Source: a virus (lineage: Duplodnaviria; Heunggongvirae; Uroviricota; Caudoviricetes). From it: a stretch of 34,066 nt of DNA. Of the stretch, positions 3,909-29,640 are shown in pieces (the first letter of the stretch is position 1; every line of letters starts with the position of its first letter). The notes under the pieces are model-generated. The model was given only the letters and a program-made list of their open reading frames with translations, had not been told where the DNA came from and searched no databases. The position numbers and the translations under genes were made by a program. The DNA lies in the IMG/VR virus record IMGVR_UViG_2541047909_000004, positions 1-34,066 of that record, one strand, 5' to 3'.

Positions 3909-4508
3909 TCAGAATTTATAACCGACACCCACGATGAAACCGTCAGTGCGCCAGTCACCACTGCCGGAGCCTTCATAAGCAATATCAATGGCCACGGATT
4001 CGGTCGGGTTAAACTGCACGCCAGCCCCCCACGCCAGAGACGTGTTGCTGTGGCGACCGTCATCACTTCCGGTCAGCACATCGTGCGTTTTCCCCTTGTT
4101 GTCAGTTACGCGAAGGTAATCCCCGGAAAAAGTCGAAACACGGCTGTAAGCCATACCCGCCATCGCATACGCGCTGAACCATTCATTCACGCGCACAGAC
4201 GGCCCCGCCATCACGCTGAACCAGCGGTTACGCACGGAATCTTCATGCCAGCGGGTATCGCTGTAACGGGTCAGCTGGCGATTCTTGTCTCCTGCATAGC
4301 TGAATGACGTCACCAGCCCCAGCGTATCCGTAAACTCATAACGGTATTTCACGTTAATCCCGTTCAGATCATCACTGCCGGGAACGTTGGTCCGGGCATG
4401 AAGATACCCCGCGCTCAGCGTGAACTGATGTTCAGATGCCCATGCAGGCGCACCGGATACGGCCAGACAAATGGCTGCGGACAAAATGGCGGCATAAAGT
4501 TTACGCAT
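3909..4508 (-). CDS. lom: Outer membrane protein Lom (Ail/Lom family)
   Basis: 199 aa; near-identical to lambda Lom from recall (MRKLYAAILSAAICLAVSGAPAWA signal peptide, C-terminal ...FIVGVGYKF); SD GAGAGG. Confidence 0.9.
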   Translation of the reverse strand: MRKLYAAILSAAICLAVSGAPAWASEHQFTLSAGYLHARTNVPGSDDLNGINVKYRYEFTDTLGLVTSFSYAGDKNRQLTRYSDTRWHEDSVRNRWFSVMAGPSVRVNEWFSAYAMAGMAYSRVSTFSGDYLRVTDNKGKTHDVLTGSDDGRHSNTSLAWGAGVQFNPTESVAIDIAYEGSGSGDWRTDGFIVGVGYKF

Positions 4509-9900: not shown

Positions 9901-10663
9901 TCTTCTCCTCCTCTGTTGATTGTCGCAGCCCGGATTCAAATGCCGCAGCCGCCCAGGCGGGCGGTTTAAGACCAGCCGCACGGCGCTCCATCGTTTCACG
10001 GACCTGCTGGGCAAAAATTTCCTGATAGTCGTCACCGCGTTTCGCGCACTCTTTCTCGTAGGTGCTCAGTCCGGCTTCTATCAGCATCACCGCTTCCTGA
10101 ACTTCTTTCAGACCATCGATGGCCATACGACCGGAGCCTATCCAGTCGCAGTTCCCCCAGGCACTGCGGGCTTCCTGAAAGCTGAAGCGCGCTTTTGAAG
10201 GTAACGTCACCACGCGGCGAACGATGGCCTCTTCCAGCCAGCACAGAAACATCTGGCTCGCCTGACGGGATGCGACGAATTTTCGCCGTCCCATAAAGTG
10301 CGCCCACGACTCGTTCGCGCTGGCCCGTGCCGTGGAGTAGCTCATCTGGGCGTAATTCCGGGAAAGCTGCTCATACGAGACACCCAGCCCGGCAGCGATA
10401 TACCGCAGCAGTGACTGCTCAAACACGGAGTAGCCGTTATCCGTGTCCTGAGCCGTCTGCAGGTTCAGTGAGTCACCCGGCATCAGGTGCGGCACTTTTG
10501 CGCCTCCCAGCCGGACCGGTGCGGCGGAGTAATACGCGGCAATTTCACCAATCCAGCCGGTCAGCCTTTCCCGCTGCTCCTGACTGTTCGCGCCCAGAAT
10601 AAAATCCATCGCTGACTGCGTATCCAGCTCACTTTCAATGGTGGCGGCATACATCGCCTTTAT
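9881..10663 (-). pseudogene. B: Portal protein B, C-terminal fragment (about residues 273-533)
   Basis: ...KAMYAATIESELDTQSAMDFILGANSQEQRERLTGW...EEEKSDSRAA matches the lambda portal C-terminus; homology stops at about 10663 where unrelated AT-rich DNA begins. Confidence 0.85.
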
Positions 10664-11098
10664 GAAAAGACAGGAAAAAATAAAATTTAAAAACAGTACA
10701 TTACGAATGCTCAGACCTATCGTTTAAAGGAGTCGCAATACACACTGCAATACACGATTATTTATAAGATGAGCGGCATCCGTCATAAAGCTGGTGGATG
10801 CTTTTTCTATGCATATATGCACAGTTTTAGTGGGCGTTAATGTCGATATAGGGATCCCCATATCGAGATTGGATACCTGGCTTTTTTCCGGTTAACCTTT
10901 AATCAGGCTGGTGGGCTTTACCTGTTTTGTATGAGTGGTCATCATGACCATGTCATAACAAAAACCCCATATTCGTGGTTTTTCTGTGTCGGGCTATTCT
11001 GTCGTTGCTGTGCTGATTTGACTGGTGGGCTGAATCATCATTACGGCGATGCAGCTATGTAGACGTTCCGGCCTCCTCAAATTGAGGATTGTGGAAGA

Positions 11099-11225
11099 AT
11101 CAATGGGTTAGTCTTACTTTCCCGACATCCCCCAATGGGGGTTTTCGAAACAATCAATAGCTTAGGCTTACTTCCCCGATTTCCTGCATTGCAGGTTTTC
11201 GAAATAATCAATGGGTTAGGCCATC
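11099..11225. repeat. Two and a third tandem 54-bp units, each containing a 5-bp-stem hairpin followed by GTTTTCGAAA
   Basis: Unit 1 (11099-11152) and unit 2 (11153-11206) align over their length, with stems CCCCCAATGGGGG versus CCTGCATTGCAGG; partial third unit at 11207. Confidence 0.7.
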
Positions 11226-11469
11226 GTGCAATTTTGCACTTTGCCAGCCAGCGCAATGTCGCGTTATCAGTCCTCAGATGTGAGGGATGTAGCCAGCTTT
11301 TCCCCCAGTGGGGGATATCCAGCACCGACGGCTTAACTGTGCGTGCCAGCACAAGGTAGCCTTGAACTACTTACTGCATCCCATCTTACAGGCCGTGCCT
11401 TCCTGCTTAACTTTTTGCAATGCAACAAGTCAGCCAGCGCAATTTTGCGTTATCGGGAATATCAGCAAG

Positions 11470-11751
11470 TTACCGCCGCAATCGTTCCGGCTTCTTCCAC
11501 TGGTAAGTATTTTTCGCGCTCTCCCTCCGTTGTTGAGAACGGCGACGATATGCCAGCAACTCAAGGACTCTTGTTCGTATGTTGCGCATATCCACGCCGT
11601 TAAGCTCAATACCGTCACGGCGCATCACCTCAGCCACTACACGCACATAATTATCTGCGGTCACGCTGTCCGGCTGCGTGGCCTGTTCGTCATGCTGCTT
11701 GCTGATTCCACAAGCACGGCGGATTAATCGCAGTATTTCGGATTCAGTCAT
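11470..11751 (-). CDS. Small basic protein (93 aa) downstream of terS-like gene, function unknown
   Basis: ORF starting 11 nt after the terS-like stop; no clear SD; Arg-rich C-terminus. Confidence 0.45.
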   Translation of the reverse strand: MTESEILRLIRRACGISKQHDEQATQPDSVTADNYVRVVAEVMRRDGIELNGVDMRNIRTRVLELLAYRRRSQQRRESAKNTYQWKKPERLRR

Positions 11752-11762
11752 AGCGTACTACG

Positions 11763-12305
11763 TTACTTATCTTTATTCGGCTGCAACTTATCCGGTACGT
11801 TTCCGGCAGTTTCCATCAGATAATCGGACAGCATCAGCGGTATGTTTTCGTCAAGTTTTGCGCATGCGTTACAGGCTCTGATAACTTCTTTTTTCAGTCC
11901 ATCCAGCATAGACGGCTTCATGTCGGGAAACTTCCTTGTCATGGCAAGCGGCAGGCTGTCCATGATTGAAGAAATCTGACTCGCCAATTTTGAAAGCACG
12001 TATATACAAAACGCTGTATCAATAACGTCGCCGCGTTCGCGCTCGTTTTTAAGCTCCTGCGCCTCTGCCTGTGCTGTCAGCAATCTGATCCTGACTCGTA
12101 GGAGTTCATCATCATCAATCTCGCCTTTGTCGTCTGTAATCTGGTTAATTGCATTGCTAACCCGATTGTCTATTACGCTGGCAACATCATAAAACGCCTC
12201 GCGGCCTTTACGTTCAACGGGAGTCACTCCCCACTTGTCGAACGCTGTCGCACTTACACGGCAGCTTTGCGCCATGTTTTTTTTGTTCATCAGGTGCGAT
12301 TTCAT
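11763..12305 (-). CDS. Terminase small subunit homologue (Nu1-like), second copy in the window
   Basis: ...LLTAQAEAQELKNERERGDVIDTAFCIYVLSKLASQISSIMDSLPLAMTRKFPDM... parallels Nu1 ...LTRAQADAQELKNARDSAEVVETAFCTFVLSRIAGEIASILDGIPLSVQRRFPEL...; start uncertain (ATG at 12305, 12290 or 12275). Confidence 0.75.
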   Translation of the reverse strand: MKSHLMNKKNMAQSCRVSATAFDKWGVTPVERKGREAFYDVASVIDNRVSNAINQITDDKGEIDDDELLRVRIRLLTAQAEAQELKNERERGDVIDTAFCIYVLSKLASQISSIMDSLPLAMTRKFPDMKPSMLDGLKKEVIRACNACAKLDENIPLMLSDYLMETAGNVPDKLQPNKDK

Positions 12306-12438
12306 CAATATCCCCACTTAAGTAATGTTTCAGGTTGGTGTATTGGCTTTATCTTTTCCTTTTTATTCATAGAGATAGAGCGAGCAACAAAACCACCACC
12401 AGCACCCGAAAAAGGCTCATAAATAGCGAAAACCCGCG

Positions 12439-12450
12439 AGGTCGCCGCCC
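12439..12450. other. Second cosN-like site (AGGTCGCCGCCC) within a ~65-bp block near-identical to the prophage cos
   Basis: 12418-12482 matches 18063-18127 except GTAGCCTACCGG versus GTAACCTGTCGG; sequence between cosN and the adjacent terS gene is unrelated between the two copies. Confidence 0.8.
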
Positions 12451-12506
12451 CGTAGCCTACCGGATCGCCGGAAAGGACCCGCCAGCCAGAACGGGCCCTA
12501 ATTTCA

Positions 12507-12890
12507 TCAACCAATCAACTTATAGCGACCATCCCGTGCATTGCGACGTACACGCTCAATCTTGAGGCATAGCGCCGCATCTGGCTTTTTTGGGACAGGT
12601 ACGCGGCAATATTCAGAAGATCGAGGAATATTGTTTATCCAGTCGATCACTTCACTTAAATACCAGGCCTTACGCCCTTCCGTAACCTGTACGCGTTCGG
12701 GGAACTCTCCGCGAGCCTCAAGGTTTAGCAATGTGCGACGGCTAAGGGTAGTAAGTTCCATCACCTGATTCATATCAACAAGGCGTTCACTTAAACGCAT
12801 TTTGTCAGCAATAGCCTTTAATTCCTCTACTGCTGGATCCGGATACATCATTTCGGCAATTGGCTTAAGGTCATTGTAATGATTCTGCAT
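12507..12890 (-). CDS. AlpA-like helix-turn-helix regulator (127 aa)
   Basis: Central motif ...LTTLSRRTLLNLEARGEFPERVQVTEGRKAWYLSEVIDWI... resembles the AlpA/excisionase-type HTH; SD AAGGGGGAT before the ATG at 12890. Confidence 0.6.
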   Translation of the reverse strand: MQNHYNDLKPIAEMMYPDPAVEELKAIADKMRLSERLVDMNQVMELTTLSRRTLLNLEARGEFPERVQVTEGRKAWYLSEVIDWINNIPRSSEYCRVPVPKKPDAALCLKIERVRRNARDGRYKLIG

Positions 12891-12901
12891 TGTATCCCCC
12901 T

Positions 12902-13243
12902 TTACACACGAGCCAGCGGCTGAACAGAAATACCTGAGCCAACAAACGCGGCAACCTTTGCCGACAGTTCTTTTACAGACTCAGGCCAGTTCAGAGCATC
13001 AACATTTAAAACACCTGTCTTATAAACCTGTGCCTGTGTTTTTTTCGCTGTGTCGATTTGTACAGCGGAAACATAAACCGCTTTACCTACGCTCGAACCA
13101 TCCCATACCACCAGTGCACCTGTTGCATCTTCCTGCATCAGTGGCGTAAATGCAGGAATTACCCCTTTATTAGCTGAAAATATCCCCAGCGTAGTCACCA
13201 GTGCTTCAGTGCCAGCCATGAGTTCAGTGTAATGAGTAGCCAT
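12902..13243 (-). CDS. Head decoration protein homologue (gpD-like, diverged)
   Basis: ...ALVVWDGSSVGKAVYVSAVQIDTAKKTQAQVYKTGVLNVDALNWPESV... parallels lambda D ...[47 protein letters not shown]...; SD AAGGGGGAG. Confidence 0.7.
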   Translation of the reverse strand: MATHYTELMAGTEALVTTLGIFSANKGVIPAFTPLMQEDATGALVVWDGSSVGKAVYVSAVQIDTAKKTQAQVYKTGVLNVDALNWPESVKELSAKVAAFVGSGISVQPLARV

Positions 13244-13252
13244 TGCTCCCCC

Positions 13253-14299
13253 TTAGCCAATGCGAACGGTAACAAAACGATTGATGCGGGCCGGTATTGG
13301 CTGTGGTGCTGAATGTGTCTGCACATATTCAATAGCCGGATCACCAGGCACAATATAGTTTTTCGGTGCAAGTTCGGCTTTAGTCAGCCCCATTCGGATT
13401 AGCTCCGGATCCTGAATACCGCCATAGGCGACAATCCCCTGAAGAGCCGTATTGCCAAGCACCATCAAATCAGGATCAAGGAAATGTTTTTCTGTTCCGT
13501 CCTCGTCGGTATAACGCCCGCTGTAAACAACAATCGCAACATCGCCCATATACCCTTTAAAACTCACCGAATCACCAAGGTCTTTAAGGGCCGTTTCCAG
13601 TTCGGAATTAGAACCACGACGGGTATCCAAAGCCTCTTTTATCGCTCTGAATGAACGGTATTTCTTCCATACATTACCACCCATAATGATGATATTAGTG
13701 ACGCCCTCACTAAATTCTGCGTAGCTCTCAATATCATCATTTGGATCAAAAGTTTCTTTATCCTTACCTGACCACTCAGTACCGCCAGACTGAGTGATGA
13801 TATTTTGTGGTTTTATATTCCAGTCCAGCTCATAACGTTCAATACCATCGCCCTCAATGATATTTTTCCCCGTTGTGATTGCCTGAACAGCAAGCCATTC
13901 AATACGTGCACGAATAGCTTTAGCCTGATTTACAATCGCCTGTTTAACTTTAATATTACGCGCCCCAAAAGCATTGTATTGCTCAGGTGACACACCAGCA
14001 GGGCGCACAGCTAACTTATTTGGATCAATGCTGCTTTTCGGCTTCATATAACCTGGACGAATTGTTTTTGATTCGTATCCCTCATCTCGTGAAACTTTAC
14101 TGCCCACCATAGGAGAGCAAAACGCCGCGATCGGGATATTTGGATCGTCGATCGTATCAAGAATAATGTCTCTCGATTCAAACATTACCGAGCGAGTGAA
14201 AAACAAACTGGTAAACAACGCATTTAATTTTTTTTGCACATCTTCAGCATTAGCCACCTGCACAAGCTGTGTAGGCGAATATAAATCAACCATACTCAT
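13253..14299 (-). CDS. Major capsid protein homologue (gpE-like, diverged)
   Basis: MSMVDLYSPTQL... start aligns with lambda [11 protein letters not shown]; shared motifs NIITQSGGTEWS, LDTRRGSNSELETA, GDVAIVVYSG; the upstream extension of the ORF to 14380 is probably not translated. Confidence 0.75.
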   Translation of the reverse strand: MSMVDLYSPTQLVQVANAEDVQKKLNALFTSLFFTRSVMFESRDIILDTIDDPNIPIAAFCSPMVGSKVSRDEGYESKTIRPGYMKPKSSIDPNKLAVRPAGVSPEQYNAFGARNIKVKQAIVNQAKAIRARIEWLAVQAITTGKNIIEGDGIERYELDWNIKPQNIITQSGGTEWSGKDKETFDPNDDIESYAEFSEGVTNIIIMGGNVWKKYRSFRAIKEALDTRRGSNSELETALKDLGDSVSFKGYMGDVAIVVYSGRYTDEDGTEKHFLDPDLMVLGNTALQGIVAYGGIQDPELIRMGLTKAELAPKNYIVPGDPAIEYVQTHSAPQPIPARINRFVTVRIG

Positions 14300-14510
14300 C
14301 CTCTTTACATTCATTACAAATAATTGTGAATATATTCTATTACCGATGTCTGCTATGCGAATACATGCAATCAAGTGCAATGTTGTATAAAATATGCCGT
14401 AACAACTTCAGTGCTGATAATTCGTGTTAATGTATTTACTTCCTTTGGTCGGGATTTATGTAGCATGCCGGAAAATCTATTTTTTTCCGGCATCTTTTTG
14501 TTTGCAGAAT

Positions 14511-14787
14511 TTAAAACGGTATATTATCGCCGTACGGATCATCATTCCCCGACTGTTGTTTTGCCCTGTTCAGTGCGTCAGTGGCCTGCCCCTGCTGGCC
14601 TTTTTTGCCGCCCGGTCGCGCCGTTCGCGCACTGATTACGCTGTCTGCGATAACCTGCCAGCCCCGCCGCGTTTCGCCGTTCTGGCCTGTCCACTGGCTT
14701 ACCTGCATGTTACCCGCCACGCTCACCAGTTCGCCTTTGTGGTGTTTTGCCAGTGCGTCGGCCTGTCTGCCAAACGCCAGGACGGAT
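14511..14787 (-). pseudogene. ssb: Single-stranded DNA-binding protein (SSB) C-terminal fragment
   Basis: ...GELVSVAGNMQVSQWTGQNGETRRGWQVIADSV...DDPYGDNIPF with the SSB-type acidic tail; N-terminal OB-fold half missing, cut at the junction with B. Confidence 0.65.
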
Positions 14788-20508: not shown

Positions 20509-20934
20509 AAGCTGTGTGACGAAGTAACCACTCTTAACAGCATAACCAATTTTTTACGTACGTAAACTACTAAATGATATTTGTGAGAATGCCACCGAGT
20601 GTTCAAAACACCACCACAAATACATAAGAAAACTTCAACAAATAATCAGTTAATAATTTCCGATGTTATTTTTAGTTTGTTTAAATTAAGCTAAAGAATT
20701 ATAGAGCACTTATAAATAAGTGCCATTAATATAAATTAGCTAATAGATTTATTTTTGTTCAGACAAGAGCCATGAATAGGATTAGATAGAAAAGGTTCAG
20801 ATAAAAATAGAGATCTACTTCACAAATTAAATGAGAAACTAAAACTTACATCTTGAAATAATCACATTGATTAGATGAATATTTATCGCGCAGTGACATC
20901 ATTTTTTAATAATAGTTCAAAAAAAGGGCGTACA

Positions 20935-22017
20935 ATGAAAAAATTAACAGTGGCAATTTCTGCTGTAGCTGCATCAGTACTGATGGCGATGTCTGCTCAG
21001 GCAGCTGAAATTTATAATAAAGACAGTAACAAGCTGGATCTATACGGGAAAGTTAATGCCAAGCACTACTTCTCCTCTAATGATGCAGATGATGGTGATA
21101 CTACTTATGCCCGTCTTGGCTTCAAAGGTGAAACCCAAATCAACGATCAACTGACTGGTTTCGGTCAGTGGGAATATGAATTCAAAGGCAACCGTGCTGA
21201 ATCTCAAGGTTCTTCCAAAGACAAAACCCGTCTTGCATTTGCAGGCCTGAAATTTGGTGATTACGGCTCCATCGATTACGGCCGTAACTACGGTGTAGCA
21301 TACGACATCGGTGCGTGGACTGACGTTCTGCCAGAATTCGGTGGTGATACCTGGACCCAAACAGATGTGTTCATGACTGGTCGCACTACTGGTGTTGCAA
21401 CTTATCGTAACAACGACTTCTTTGGTCTGGTCGATGGCCTGAACTTTGCTGCTCAGTATCAGGGTAAAAATGACCGCACTGACGTAACTGAAGCCAATGG
21501 TGATGGTTTCGGTTTCTCCACTACTTATGAGTATGAAGGATTCGGCGTGGGTGCAACCTATGCTAAATCAGATCGCACTGACGGTCAGGTCGCCTATGGT
21601 AAGAGCAAATTCAATGCCTCCGGCAAAAATGCGGAAGTATGGGCTGCAGGCCTGAAATATGATGCGAACAATATCTATCTGGCTACCACATATTCTGAAA
21701 CTCAGAATATGACCGTTTTTGGTAATAACCATATTGCAAACAAAGCACAAAACTTTGAAGCAGTAGCACAATATCAGTTTGACTTCGGTCTGCGCCCATC
21801 TGTTGCTTACCTTCAGTCAAAAGGTAAAGACCTTGGTGTTCATGGTGACCGAGACTTAGTCAAGTATGTCGATGTCGGTGCTACTTACTACTTTAATAAA
21901 AACATGTCTACTTTTGTTGATTACAAAATCAACTTAATTGACGATAGTAAGTTTACCAAAACAGCTGGTATTGATACCGACGACATCGTCGCTGTAGGTC
22001 TGGTTTATCAGTTCTAA
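20935..22017 (+). CDS. nmpC: Outer membrane porin (OmpC/OmpF family; NmpC/Lc-like phage porin)
   Basis: 360 aa with signal peptide [38 protein letters not shown] start of mature porin and C-terminal ...VGLVYQF. Confidence 0.85.
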
Positions 22018-26109: not shown

Positions 26110-26275
26110 AGTTTTTTTATCTGACGGATCATGTTTTGATTTTACTGACGGATCCCCACCAGATTCTGACGGGTGAAAACCCGCTTTTTTGCCAGATTTC
26201 GACGCATCAAATTTTGACGGGTCAGATTTTGATGCGTCAGATTTTGACGGGTCAGAATCTGACAGTTGAGAAAAT
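26110..26275. repeat. Iteron-like array: several direct repeats of TGACGGGTCAGA / TGATGCGTCAGATTT-type units next to an AT-rich stretch (candidate replication origin)
   Basis: About 18-bp periodic units CAGATTTTGACGGGT / CAGATTTTGATGCG between 26200 and 26265 plus CTGACGGATC repeated at 26121 and 26145. Confidence 0.6.
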
Positions 26276-26555
26276 GCCGCTGCCTGAAGCTTCGCAACGT
26301 TAAGCTGATAAACATTCGACGCATTGCGGTTAATCCATCATTTGGATTGGGGTAAATATCAGGACGCAGTTCATGAGGGGTCACGGACCAGTTTCCCAAC
26401 TCACAAAGTTGTAAAACCCGTTCTGACGGGACTTGATTGTTAATTACCCAATTAGCGACGGATTGAGTGGACTTAAAACCAAAGTGACGGGCTACTTCAG
26501 ATAAAGATTTTCCCGCAGCTTTTACTGCTTTCTCTGTGTAGTTTTGAGATGACAT
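26142..26555 (-). CDS. Cro/YdaS-like HTH protein whose ORF extends through the iteron array
   Basis: N-terminal ...LSEVARHFGFKSTQSVANWVINNQVPSERVLQLCELGNWSVTPHELRPDIYP... Cro/YdaS-type HTH; C-terminal tail (LTRQNLTHQNLTRQNL) is encoded by the repeats; SD GAGGAGAAAGG. Confidence 0.65.
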   Translation of the reverse strand: MSSQNYTEKAVKAAGKSLSEVARHFGFKSTQSVANWVINNQVPSERVLQLCELGNWSVTPHELRPDIYPNPNDGLTAMRRMFISLTLRSFRQRHFLNCQILTRQNLTHQNLTRQNLMRRNLAKKRVFTRQNLVGIRQ

Positions 26556-26640
26556 ACCTTTCTCCTCTGAAATTCAGAGGGATGATGCTACTTAAAATAG
26601 CAGAATGCAACTACTTAAAATAGAAATGACTAGCGTATGT
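26556..26640. promoter_or_regulatory. Immunity-region operator/promoter segment between divergent cro-like and cI-like genes
   Basis: Perfect-arm palindrome CCTCTGAA-A-TTCAGAGG at 26564-26580 and two direct copies of CTACTTAAAATAG at 26588-26600 and 26611-26623. Confidence 0.5.
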
Positions 26641-27366
26641 GATGCGAGTAACCTTCTACCTATGGTAGAAGAACAGAAGTATCCAGATTTCGCCAAGAGA
26701 CTAAACGAGCTAATGACAAACAAGGGAATTTCTGTCACCCAACTCAAAAGTCTTGTGGGCGTTACATATGAAATGGCGCGGCGATACACAATCGGCGCTG
26801 CGAAGCCTCGTGCCTCTGTCATGAATAAACTTGCATTGGCTCTGGGGGTATCAGCTTCATATTTAGAATATGGTGTTGGCGAGAGAGAAGGATGTAAGGA
26901 AATGGCAAGCATCCCCAATCCAACAAAACCCGATGTATACAGGATAGAAGTTTTGGATCTTAGCGTTAGCGCAGGACCTGGAACCTATATGCTTTCAGAC
27001 TATGTTGATGTGCTCTACGCCATTGAGTTCACAACAGAGCATGCCCGTTCTCTTTTCGGTAATCGTTCTCAAGATGATATTAAAGTTATGACTGTAAATG
27101 GCGACAGCATGTCCCCTACTCTAGTTTCCGGAGATCGACTGTTTGTCGACATTTCTGTTCGCAACTTCCAAACTGATGGTGTTTACTCTTTCGTTTATGG
27201 TAAGACGTTCCACGTTAAACGTCTACAAATGCAAGGCAACAAACTCGCCGTTCTTTCGGATAATCCAGCCTATGAGAAATGGTACATTGATGAGAAGTCC
27301 CAAGATCAACTTTATGTTATGGGCAAAGCATTGATACACGAATCAATTAAATACAACCGGCTTTAG
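26605..27366 (+). CDS. cI: CI-like prophage repressor (HTH plus S24 LexA-like peptidase domain)
   Basis: C-terminal ...VNGDSMSPTLVSGDRLFVD...FHVKRLQ... Ser/Lys autocleavage module; N-terminal HTH; start uncertain (26605, 26629 or 26662), possibly leaderless. Confidence 0.8.
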   Translation: MQLLKIEMTSVCDASNLLPMVEEQKYPDFAKRLNELMTNKGISVTQLKSLVGVTYEMARRYTIGAAKPRASVMNKLALALGVSASYLEYGVGEREGCKEMASIPNPTKPDVYRIEVLDLSVSAGPGTYMLSDYVDVLYAIEFTTEHARSLFGNRSQDDIKVMTVNGDSMSPTLVSGDRLFVDISVRNFQTDGVYSFVYGKTFHVKRLQMQGNKLAVLSDNPAYEKWYIDEKSQDQLYVMGKALIHESIKYNRL

Positions 27367-27536
27367 TTCTTCGTTTAGACTATAGAACTAAAGGTGAAAA
27401 AATAATATTTATCAAGCAAGTGCTATTACTAATAGTTGTTTTACTCTCTTATTTTTATTAAACATTATCATTAACAATATAAAATAATCACCCAGCGTAA
27501 ATTACAATATGCTGGGGGTCGAAAGGATAGAGAAAT

Positions 27537-28613
27537 ATGACAAAATCAATTTGTTTTTTTAATCATAAAGGTGGGGTAAGTAAAACCACAACAACCTTCA
27601 ATCTTGGATGGGCACTTGCGGATGAAGGCAAGAAAGTATTGATGGTTGACCTTGATTCGCAATGTAATCTAACAGGAATGGTTCTTGGCTATGAAAAGAT
27701 TGATGAGGGTTTAGATTCTTTTTATTCTAGCAGAGATAACTTAACTCTTGGACCTATTGTAGAATATTTGATTAATGGCGGACAACCTGAAGCATACCTT
27801 GAAAAAGAAACGGGAAAATTACACCCTACACTGCATGAAAACCTTCTGCTTCTTCCCGGACATTTAGATGTTTCGGACTTAGATTCACAGATAAGTGTTT
27901 CTCTAAAAATTGCTGCTGGTATTCCTGCTACAAGAAATATACCAGGGAACCTGCCAAAAATATTACAGCTAATCGCCATGAAGAATAATATTGATTACAT
28001 TCTTTATGATCTCAGCCCTAATGTTGGAGGTTTAAATGAAGTAGTTCTCATGTCAAGTGACTATTTTATCGTACCTGTAGCTCCAGACTTTTTTTGCTGG
28101 CAAGCAATTCGCTCTCTCTCAAAAAATATACCTCGCTGGCACAAAGAATTAGCATTATTTAAAGAAAATAATGATGGTAACTCTTCACAATCAATTAAAA
28201 ATGCACCGCAGTTTCTAGGTATGATTCAGCAGAGATACAGGCCGCGTAAAGGAGCACCTGTAAAATCTTTCGAAAAATGGATGGCAGCTATCCGTGATGC
28301 TGTTGATTCGATCTTAGTGCCAAATCTAGAAAAAATTACCTGCATAATTCCACGAGATAAAGTGCAACATGCAATTAACAAAACAACAGTCAGTGGAGAT
28401 TTATCAGCCTATGATCTTGCGCATATTTCCGATTTCAACTCATTAATCGCAATAAGCCAACAACTAGCGACACCTGTTTTCTCCATCAGTGATCAGCAAA
28501 TTCGCGATTCAGGGCAATTTGGGCATGCCTTAAATACAATGAAATCAAGCAGAGACGCCTTTAACGAACAATTTAAAGGGCTGGCTCAACGAGTTCTAGA
28601 ACTTACAAAGTAA
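27537..28613 (+). CDS. ParA/MinD-family ATPase (358 aa, deviant Walker A), low-GC moron in the rexAB-equivalent position
   Basis: FFNHKGGVSKTTTTFNLGWALADEGKKVLMVDLDSQCNLT Walker A; SD AAGGATAG; AT-rich gene and flanks; immediately downstream of cI on the same strand. Confidence 0.8.
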   Translation: MTKSICFFNHKGGVSKTTTTFNLGWALADEGKKVLMVDLDSQCNLTGMVLGYEKIDEGLDSFYSSRDNLTLGPIVEYLINGGQPEAYLEKETGKLHPTLHENLLLLPGHLDVSDLDSQISVSLKIAAGIPATRNIPGNLPKILQLIAMKNNIDYILYDLSPNVGGLNEVVLMSSDYFIVPVAPDFFCWQAIRSLSKNIPRWHKELALFKENNDGNSSQSIKNAPQFLGMIQQRYRPRKGAPVKSFEKWMAAIRDAVDSILVPNLEKITCIIPRDKVQHAINKTTVSGDLSAYDLAHISDFNSLIAISQQLATPVFSISDQQIRDSGQFGHALNTMKSSRDAFNEQFKGLAQRVLELTK

Positions 28614-28620
28614 TGCATGT

Positions 28621-28648
28621 GCCCGGCCGCATAACCGGGCTTTACTCT
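28621..28648 (+). terminator. Rho-independent terminator after ParA-like gene
   Basis: GCCCGG-CCGCATAA-CCGGGC followed by TTTACTCTTCTTTC. Confidence 0.6.
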
Positions 28649-28800
28649 TCTTTCTCCCTGATTAATCTCATAAAAAACTCCCTCCTCATAATTCACTATG
28701 CTCAATACCTACTCCAACTTCGTGCGATATTTTCAGTTTACAGCATAGTAAATCAGCAAAAACATTTAACTTTCAATTAATTATAGAAAAATCATAGACA

Positions 28801-28848
28801 ACAACAAATATCTACTTTTTGTTGTTGATTTTTGCTACTTTAAGTAGC
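28801..28848. promoter_or_regulatory. Candidate left operator/promoter region (inverted repeats sharing the CTACTT half-site)
   Basis: ACAACAAA...TTTGTTGT inverted repeat at 28801-28825 and GCTACTT-TA-AGTAGC at 28834-28848, followed by CATAAT. Confidence 0.4.
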
Positions 28849-29003
28849 AACATAATGTAAGCTATCACGGACAGGCAGGACGCCCACGAAGTAGCCGCCG
28901 GTGGCGTATGAATGACCGGATGATTCGTTAGCAACAAAAAAGCGCCCTACAGGACGCTTAGCTCTTTAACAATCTTAGTATCCCCGTAACAAAAGAGGGT
29001 TCT

Positions 29004-29297
29004 ATGGTCATATTCTGTGCTTACGTTCATCCTAATGGATTTTTTATCAGCACCAACCAACAAGACGAATTCTGGATTCTACTTAGTAAGCAGGTCGGAT
29101 GGGGACGATTCTGTCTAATCCGACCAGAATCAGAATTTACAGAGAATGGAGGGCTTTTTGAATTACGTGAAATACGTCCGGCAGATGGTCAAGCCCCTGA
29201 CCAAGTAATCGAATCGTCAGCTGTTTTATGGCGTCGGCAGGAAGCGTTCGAAGCTGAGAGAGTAATTTCTTCTTATCTTCAGTCGTGGCAGAAGTAG
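29004..29297 (+). CDS. Hypothetical protein (97 aa), first ORF downstream of candidate pL
   Basis: ATG preceded by AAGAGGG; overlaps the convergent 167-aa ORF by 161 bp, so only one may be fully real. Confidence 0.4.
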   Translation: MVIFCAYVHPNGFFISTNQQDEFWILLSKQVGWGRFCLIRPESEFTENGGLFELREIRPADGQAPDQVIESSAVLWRRQEAFEAERVISSYLQSWQK

Positions 29298-29640
29298 AAC
29301 TATTGATGATACGTTCAAGTTCACAGAGAGTCTCATCATGCAATCTTATTGTCATAATCCCAAGAATAGCTTTAAGACCTCCATCATCACGAATGAAATC
29401 AATTCCATCTTTAGTAATTCTTAATTCAGGAATATTTATATTTATGCCATCCAAGTAATAATCAAGAGCATTCTTAATCAAGCCATGTTCTTCGAGATAA
29501 ATTAAGTTCGAAATTAGGACATTATCATCTCCAAATGCGTCACGAACAGACTGCAACGCATCATCAGAAATTTCATAAGGATGAGCATCATACAGTATTT
29601 GTAACAACTGCCTTTGTGCACTTCTATCAAATTTGTCCAT
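29137..29640 (-). CDS. Hypothetical protein (167 aa), AT-rich, opposite strand to the early operon
   Basis: Long ORF with protein-like composition (MDKFDRSAQRQLLQILYDAHPYEISDD...); weak SD; no recognisable motif. Confidence 0.5.
   Translation of the reverse strand: MDKFDRSAQRQLLQILYDAHPYEISDDALQSVRDAFGDDNVLISNLIYLEEHGLIKNALDYYLDGININIPELRITKDGIDFIRDDGGLKAILGIMTIRLHDETLCELERIINSSTSATTEDKKKLLSQLRTLPADAIKQLTIRLLGQGLDHLPDVFHVIQKALHSL

Follow-up and report, generated by a model that had tools for sequence, protein, structure and literature searches.

In phage lambda, the rexAB genes lie after cI and before oL/pL, and the two proteins of the RexAB system include a membrane component. A three-gene prophage system, RemAIN, was reportedly described by Sargen & Helaine in 2024. 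According to secondary descriptions, RemAIN (STM14_3218-3220, Gifsy-1(14028s)) comprises the ParA-like ATPase RemA, the immunity protein RemI and the HEPN anticodon nuclease RemN (PMC13043305, PMC9879122), and it stops both incoming and co-resident phages (PMC13043305, PMC9879122, PMC12724215). GiPD474 (STM474_RS13505), described by Bosma, Noireaux & Bowden in 2025, is a single ParA/MinD-like ATPase encoded in the immunity regions of two Salmonella prophages, Gifsy-1(4/74) and Gifsy-3(14028s); its deletion restores plating of Felix O1, and when carried on a plasmid in E. coli K-12 it lowers the plating of T4 and Alf5 by ~5 logs, with T7, SP6 and S16 insensitive (PMC12724215). In addition, a dyad of a ParA/Soj-like ATPase and a HEPN protein was predicted to be a toxin-antitoxin system in which the ATPase is the antitoxin, and Schlafen fusions of the HEPN partner were reported (Anantharaman et al. 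2013, PMC3710099). Here, we compare these systems with a solo ParA/MinD-fold ATPase gene in a tailed-phage (Caudoviricetes) prophage sequence of 34,066 nucleotides, positions 1 to 34,066 of IMG/VR record IMGVR_UViG_2541047909_000004; this whole stretch is referred to as the window.

The window gene is an intact ParA-type ATPase gene in the slot between a cI-like repressor gene and a candidate oL. It is probably the third ParA-type defence found in this slot, and we put the probability that it is a prophage-expressed defence or phage-competition gene at roughly 0.6. A role in a conflict system is argued for by its position, its behaviour as a cassette, its exchange with two proven defences, the defence-island neighbours of its relatives and the effectors linked to some of them.

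The slot between cI and oL

The elements of the slot and its flanks, in window coordinates, are the following.
26582–26627 (no strand assigned): operator-like repeats, candidate oR, with CTACTTAAAATAG twice at 26588–26623, between the cro-like and cI-like genes
26605–27366 (+): cI-like repressor gene (HTH_3 and Peptidase_S24), whose RefSeq homologue starts at the equivalent of 26662
27367–27536 (+): AT-rich spacer, 27% GC, with weak sigma-70-like matches at 27459–27488
27369–28781 (+): exchangeable cassette, 1.41 kb, 36.5% GC; homology with differently loaded sister prophages breaks after the cI stop and restarts at the oL repeats
27537–28613 (+): solo ParA/MinD-fold ATPase gene, 358 aa, with an ATG start and an AAGGA-type ribosome-binding site
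28621–28640 (+): intrinsic-terminator-like hairpin of 6 G-C pairs with an 8-nt loop and a T-rich tail, 8 nt past the stop codon
28808–28853 (no strand assigned): candidate oL/pL, an inverted copy of the oR repeats, forming the downstream edge of the slot and kept in sister prophages

The gene order is oR, cI, ATPase, oL, early-left genes (yfdP/Q/R-like) and integrase, with the cI-like stop 170 bp upstream of the ATPase gene on the same strand. Since CTACTTAAAATAG repeats lie on both sides, the ATPase gene is placed between cI and the candidate oL, and by this order the slot is that of lambda rexAB. The original prediction, made from the DNA alone, had put the gene in a rexAB-equivalent slot, after a same-strand CI-like repressor (which ends at 27366) and before a candidate oL/pL (the operator copies at 28808–28853), and had noted a clean intrinsic terminator, which corresponds to the hairpin; on all of these points it was borne out. 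It had also assigned the gene its own AT-rich promoter region. The AT-richness is real, but the spacer has only weak matches to promoter consensus sequences, in a number that does not exceed that in shuffled sequence, so this part of the claim was not upheld. As no T-tract terminator was found after cI, read-through into the ATPase gene from the cI transcript would be plausible. The 5′ leader just before the ribosome-binding site of the ATPase gene contains an inverted repeat, CCCAGC-N14-GCTGGG (27491–27516), which is not conserved in the family; a conserved 5′ element was looked for upstream of family members and none was found. The window gene and rexAB share a genomic position and a logic of lysogen expression, whereas their products are related neither in sequence nor in fold (PADLOC gave no Rex match, and the fold of the window protein is that of ParA).

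Comparison across related prophages, which had been proposed as a check on the original prediction, revealed that the same slot contains the window gene, GiPD474, other genes, RemAIN or nothing. Near-isogenic E. coli prophages differ in their cargo. In E. coli EC6030, the cI allele and the flanks are those of the window, and the slot holds a 361-aa 'ParA family protein' 93% identical to GiPD474; homology between the window and EC6030 ends at 27368, two bases past the cI stop, and resumes at 28782. With the same cI allele, E. coli LP5-1 carries two hypothetical genes in the slot instead, and in E. coli O111:H2 strain 12A, which has a different repressor, the slot is empty. Salmonella Gifsy prophages whose repressors are 95% identical, and whose cro and cII genes do not differ, have GiPD474 in the slot in some cases and, in others, a homologue 73% identical to the window protein; in Gifsy-1 of 14028s, where the locus was recovered, the slot contains RemA, RemI and RemN. 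The GiPD474 sequence used throughout was recovered from IMG/VR by means of the knockout primer of PMC12724215; the 73%-identical Salmonella homologue (P0010) was itself considered as GiPD474 and rejected, because the knockout and check primers of that paper mismatch its loci. The two slot genes of LP5-1 (L021:5043-6034; 120 and 210 aa) have no confident family match and are candidate cargo of the same hotspot.

On this comparison of sequences, the window gene is a mobile single-gene cassette, dispensable in sister prophages. Like GiPD474, it is the only gene between repressor and early-left operon and takes part in cassette-for-cassette replacement. Like the window locus, RemAIN has its ParA-like ATPase directly downstream of the repressor, in the same slot. 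RemA requires RemI and RemN, whereas the window gene has no such neighbours: it is followed by just the terminator and oL, in a cassette without further genes, and the locus is therefore not a RemAIN system. The suggestion in the original prediction that the gene is lysogen-expressed exclusion or defence cargo thus draws its support from comparison, namely from the exchange of the slot with GiPD474 and RemAIN.

RefSeq and PHROG labels ('ParA family / ParA-like partition protein') would fit a different role, in which the protein is the partition or maintenance ATPase of an excised or plasmid form of the prophage, and this alternative had been set beforehand as one that could overturn a defence role. 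It failed, and we regard it as highly improbable. In agreement with the original prediction, which had seen no partition partner, no ParB or centromere-binding gene was found among the scanned open reading frames (ORFs) of the window or among the genes that RefSeq annotates in the related prophage of IHE3034, and no centromere-like repeats or iterons flank the ATPase gene, the nearby repeats being cI operator copies only. The prophage has an integrase and adjoins tRNA-Arg. DNA identical to the window gene occurs in 109 of 5,426 complete E. coli genomes (~2%), always on the chromosome, and all E. coli copies of the gene (111/111) are chromosomal. The dispensability of the gene in sister prophages likewise argues against a maintenance function.

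The ATPase and its relation to proven defences

The product of the window gene is identical to WP_000167381.1 (RefSeq name 'ParA family protein'). Its matches to Pfam AAA_31 (E 2e-29) and CbiA exceed the gathering score in both cases, and PHROG 164 ('ParA-like partition protein') aligns to residues 1–356. Its motifs are as follows.
Residues 11–18: deviant Walker A, KGGVSKTT, with signature Lys11 and Lys16
Residues 37–42: Walker A′, VDLDSQ
Residues 156–161: Walker B, LYDLSP
Residues 231–237: family motif QQRYRPR
Residues 299–308: family motif DFNSLIAISQ

The Walker A, A′ and B motifs are invariant in an alignment of 35 homologues. Motifs, profiles and fold all place the protein among the ParA/MinD (SIMIBI) deviant-Walker-A ATPases, and the ORF encodes an intact member of this class, as the original prediction of a 358-aa deviant-Walker-A ATPase had it. 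The low GC content given there was likewise confirmed (37.7% in the ORF and 27% in the upstream spacer, versus 49% in the whole window). A PADLOC (2023) scan gave a lone partial match, to PDC-M28B (residues 3–40 of a 438-position model, E 6e-9); membership of PDC-M28 (protein B) was rejected because the match is confined to the Walker A region and is not full-length.

An AlphaFold2 model built on the family alignment was confident, with a predicted local distance difference test (pLDDT) of 83.5 and a predicted template modelling (pTM) score of 0.88. In this model, the extra length of the protein takes the form of insertions at ~45–100, 200–225 and 267–292, and Pfam AAA_31 spans just the first two-thirds of the fold. 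The ~100-aa C-terminal extension of the original prediction is accordingly no separate domain; both profiles and model show one ParA fold with insertions. Neither a transmembrane segment nor a membrane-targeting helix was found in the protein (maximum Kyte-Doolittle hydropathy over 19 residues, 1.4), and no effector domain was recognised in it. The window protein is therefore a soluble, single-domain ParA fold with its catalytic and dimer-signature residues all intact. A strand-helix at 293–310 (DFNSLIAISQ...PVF) appears, in our reading of the model, to replace the canonical 'IPRNVRLSEAP...P' element. A structural-genomics entry from Corynebacterium diphtheriae (DIP2308, Protein Data Bank 3pg5) is 24% identical to the window protein in structural alignment.

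By structure, the window protein is best matched by ParAs that act in DNA segregation (8ray, V. cholerae ParA2 and pNOB8 ParA). This true ParA fold would suit an orphan ParA that poisons or competes with the ParABS systems of plasmids or phage-plasmids (P1, N15, SSU5) and so aids the prophage in competition, and RemAIN, according to secondary descriptions, is an element of prophage competition and blocks co-resident prophages too. We nonetheless consider an anti-plasmid role unlikely: there is no evidence that the window protein binds a ParB-type partner, it is just 24% identical to Soj, the canonical partner-contact region is replaced by the family-specific DFNSLIAISQ, and family members occur widely, in genomes and settings without an evident tie to plasmids.

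GiPD474 resembles the window protein: both are solo ATPases of the ParA/MinD fold, ~360 aa long, and their insertions fall in matching regions. The family of GiPD474, like that of the window protein, is also highly conserved and widely transferred. The two proteins are nevertheless only 22% identical (E 1e-13), so that the window protein lies outside the GiPD474 family as delimited by at least 70% identity and coverage (PMC12724215), and the Walker A of GiPD474 reads GGVGKT where the window protein has GGVSKT. Against a hidden Markov model (HMM) of the window family, RemA scored 55.6 bits, chromosomal Soj 51.9 and GiPD474 51.3, compared with 145–573 bits for true family members; the window protein scored 43 bits against the GiPD474 HMM. 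Profile comparison had suggested kinship between the window protein and GiPD474 (99% probability), which was rejected because the Soj control showed that this reflects the shared ParA fold only. RemA (279 aa) belongs to another lineage than the window protein. Judged by these sequence comparisons, the window protein, GiPD474 and RemA are three independent branches of the ParA superfamily in one prophage position. They differ also in what is known of their function: GiPD474 has a measured phenotype (Felix O1, T4, Alf5), whereas the role of the window protein is reached by comparison.

Solo and partnered members of the family

Close homologues of the window protein (60–88% identical, ~357 aa) are spread over the Proteobacteria. 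When one genome per species was scanned, relatives turned up in at least 559 species of many phyla, and a cluster library at 50% identity contained 274 representatives at E <= 1e-30. Three longer 'fusions' among the close homologues (P0096, P0097 and P0106) proved to be just upstream extensions or a SHOCT-like segment. All members at least 59% identical to the window protein are solo, carried as cargo in prophages, satellites and islands. The P22-like phages ST160 and SE1 have the order c2, orf24, family ATPase, gene 24; in both, the gene between c2 and the ParA-like orf23 is a DUF3024 gene, orf24 (ST160, L025:4521-4862), which could be co-cargo or a lineage-specific partner. A Pseudomonas lambdoid prophage has the family ATPase directly behind an S24 repressor, and Acinetobacter and Chromobacterium prophages have it in Arc/Ant moron regions. 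On islands, it accompanies ParE and a RepB primase in Mannheimia and lies near HicAB, DarTG and a type I restriction-modification system in a P4-like island of Megalodesulfovibrio gigas. One metagenomic contig (L024:4622-7636) carries a window-family ATPase, a fused MNT-HEPN and a GiPD474-family ATPase adjacent to one another between murB and mnmE; this cluster, near chromosomal parAB/gidB, resembles a small defence islet in the vicinity of oriC. A Pf1-type filamentous prophage carries a more distant relative (31% identity) at its accessory end. A type I restriction-modification specificity subunit had been proposed upstream of the Paranoxybacillus/Anoxybacillus copies and was dropped for lack of a Pfam match, and a UvrA-like neighbour at a few loci that matched PADLOC 'mad3' is, by its Pfam UvrA domain families, probably an ordinary uvrA.

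The very high conservation of the family suggests, from the alignment, an interaction with a conserved cellular or phage component. A conserved cellular partner across hosts would also fit lysogenic conversion, in which an ATPase resembling MinD, FlhG/FleN or BcsQ alters some host process, such as division, flagella or surface polymers, and any phage resistance is an indirect result. We hold this to be improbable: the protein has no membrane-targeting helix or hydrophobic segment, no neighbour conserved across genera, of the kind that would hint at a pathway, was found around family members, and the HEPN, protease and Schlafen effectors described below, together with the defence islands, indicate conflict systems.

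Clustering of the neighbours of 80 species-representative loci of the window family identified one recurrent downstream family. Its members, of ~200 aa, occur in 20 of the 80 loci at a gap of 0–79 nt (<=11 nt in 17 of the 20), match Pfam HEPN_RiboL-PSP and carry an RRNQIAH (Rx4H) motif. The ATPases of these loci are 37–41% identical to the window protein, and those with an identified source are from Chloroflexota, Cyanobacteria, Acidobacteriota and Spirochaetes. In other family members, the ATPase is part of a fusion protein that also contains either a C48/RickCE CE-clan protease or Schlafen AlbA_2 and HATPase_c_4. Partnered and fused members belong to the true family (158–321 bits, versus 52 for Soj), and the solo and partnered groups share the motifs FNHKGGVSKTTT, Q(Q/N)YRPR and DFNSLIA-SQ. 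At four further loci (L068, L069, L079 and L088; 38–42% identity; those named are from Bryobacterales, Thiomonas and Burkholderia), the ATPase gene has another shared partner of ~310 aa directly downstream, at most 25 nt away and overlapping in L079, which has no Pfam or PADLOC match and may be an alternative effector.

This arrangement recalls both described systems that contain a HEPN protein. As in RemAIN, a ParA-like ATPase is paired with a HEPN nuclease in distant members of the window family, yet RemN has no detectable similarity to their HEPN_RiboL-PSP partners. The ATPases of the dyads found here are in the same sequence family as the window protein (37–41% identity over residues 1–357, 307–321 bits). 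The dyad of PMC3710099, itself a prediction, includes a HEPN gene, whereas the window copy and all relatives at least 59% identical to it are solo, with no HEPN gene directly downstream; the identity of the HEPN_RiboL-PSP partner with the MAE_18760 family of that paper could not be confirmed. Schlafen is on the HEPN partner in PMC3710099 and on the ATPase itself in a fusion found here.

If ATPases of this type are antitoxins of HEPN toxins, as proposed in PMC3710099, the solo protein might be an orphan antitoxin or counter-defence factor that neutralises HEPN-type abortive-infection toxins of the host or of rivals, and so protects the prophage rather than the cell. The window protein does belong to a family whose distant members have a HEPN gene directly downstream, and the solo clade has lost that partner. 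Several observations make this reading unlikely, however. Partnered members come mostly from other phyla at 37–41% identity, and no matching HEPN gene lies beside relatives at least 59% identical. The slot in the repressor operon, rather than in an early lytic operon, is typical of lysogen-expressed defences, and proven defences occupy it. Furthermore, a solo ParA-like ATPase is able to defend by itself, as GiPD474 demonstrates (PMC12724215).

Proposed role and prophage context

A number of points weigh against a defence or phage-competition role for the window gene. GiPD474 and RemA are no closer to the window protein than is housekeeping Soj (51–56 bits, 22–27% identity), and the argument is therefore positional, not one of homology. 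No effector is recognisable in the solo clade. Mean column identity across Proteobacteria is ~64%, which is atypical for sensors of fast-evolving phage parts, and some distant members lie among genes that resemble housekeeping genes by sequence. No phenotype for the window protein or its family was found in the literature, including large defence-discovery papers, within an incomplete coverage of it. Expression in the lysogen is inferred, and a promoter belonging to the gene was not demonstrated. DNA binding is also uncertain: R237 aligns with the TMYDxR arginine of Soj, which, with the PRNVR arginines, we take to be among the DNA-binding positions of that protein, and R237 is kept but the PRNVR arginines are replaced by SDFNS.

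Under the defence reading, the ATPase would most likely be expressed in the lysogen and shield both cell and prophage from incoming or co-resident phages. Transcription would probably arise by read-through from the cI promoter and stop at the hairpin at 28621–28640. The ATP-bound sandwich dimer could then act as a nucleotide-dependent switch that, once a phage has adsorbed, answers a cue derived from it. This ATP switch would control the HEPN RNase in partnered relatives; in the solo clade, the ATPase would act as an effector in its own right and probably sequester DNA or a phage or host factor that is essential, or it may instead recruit a factor encoded elsewhere in the cell.

More tentatively, a bare ParA ATP switch descended from the sensor or regulator of a HEPN RNase may be able to stop phages with no effector domain at all. 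Such a switch could capture or misposition phage DNA or a conserved replication or packaging factor in an ATP-dependent manner, or trigger a host nuclease encoded elsewhere. If this is true, the RemA, GiPD474 and window lineages would have been recruited to one slot independently, because the ParA switch would be a general-purpose phage sensor.

Elsewhere in the window (26142–26555 and 26193–26332), compared with IHE3034, EC6030 and LP5-1, ~1.2 kb is missing at 26332, which includes the N-terminal portion of an O-like replication gene as well as ymfL and a DUF4222 gene. The cro-like ORF is fused to a region of 15-bp tandem repeats (26193–26256, 4.3 copies). The prophage is probably defective for replication and regulation, with the ATPase gene nonetheless intact. 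Convergent to the ATPase gene, between oL and the early-left genes, is a 167-aa gene at 29137–29640 (-) (PHROG 3983, no Pfam or PADLOC match) with its own promoter-like site and a terminator at 28959–28940 (-). Its position is a second variable moron slot, occupied by a different 171-aa gene in IHE3034 and by an ECs1072-family gene in LP5-1, and empty in EC6030. A ~4.1-kb block absent from IHE3034 (10661–14779) interrupts the lambda-type portal region and contains a partial Nu1-like gene (11763–12317), an AlpA-like gene (12507–12890), a second head-decoration gene D (12902–13243) and a second E-type major capsid gene (13253–14380); it may be what is left of another phage or a capsid-encoding satellite. 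The window also encodes a porin (20875–22017 (+); Porin_1, E 2e-151), beside a patch of 31% GC, and a Lom/Ail outer-membrane protein (3909–4508 (-)), both of which are classic lysogenic-conversion cargo.

Prophage immunity regions are a recognised source of defence genes, in which ParA-like ATPases are a recent addition (RemAIN in 2024, GiPD474 in 2025). If it acts in defence, the window family would be a third and much larger ParA-type family at this position, present also in the isolated phages ST160 and SE1, and would bear on the prediction of phage susceptibility in pathogenic E. coli such as IHE3034 and avian pathogenic E. coli (APEC) O18 lineages. Its solo and HEPN-partnered forms would provide a natural series in which to trace the path from a partition-type ATP switch to an immune module.

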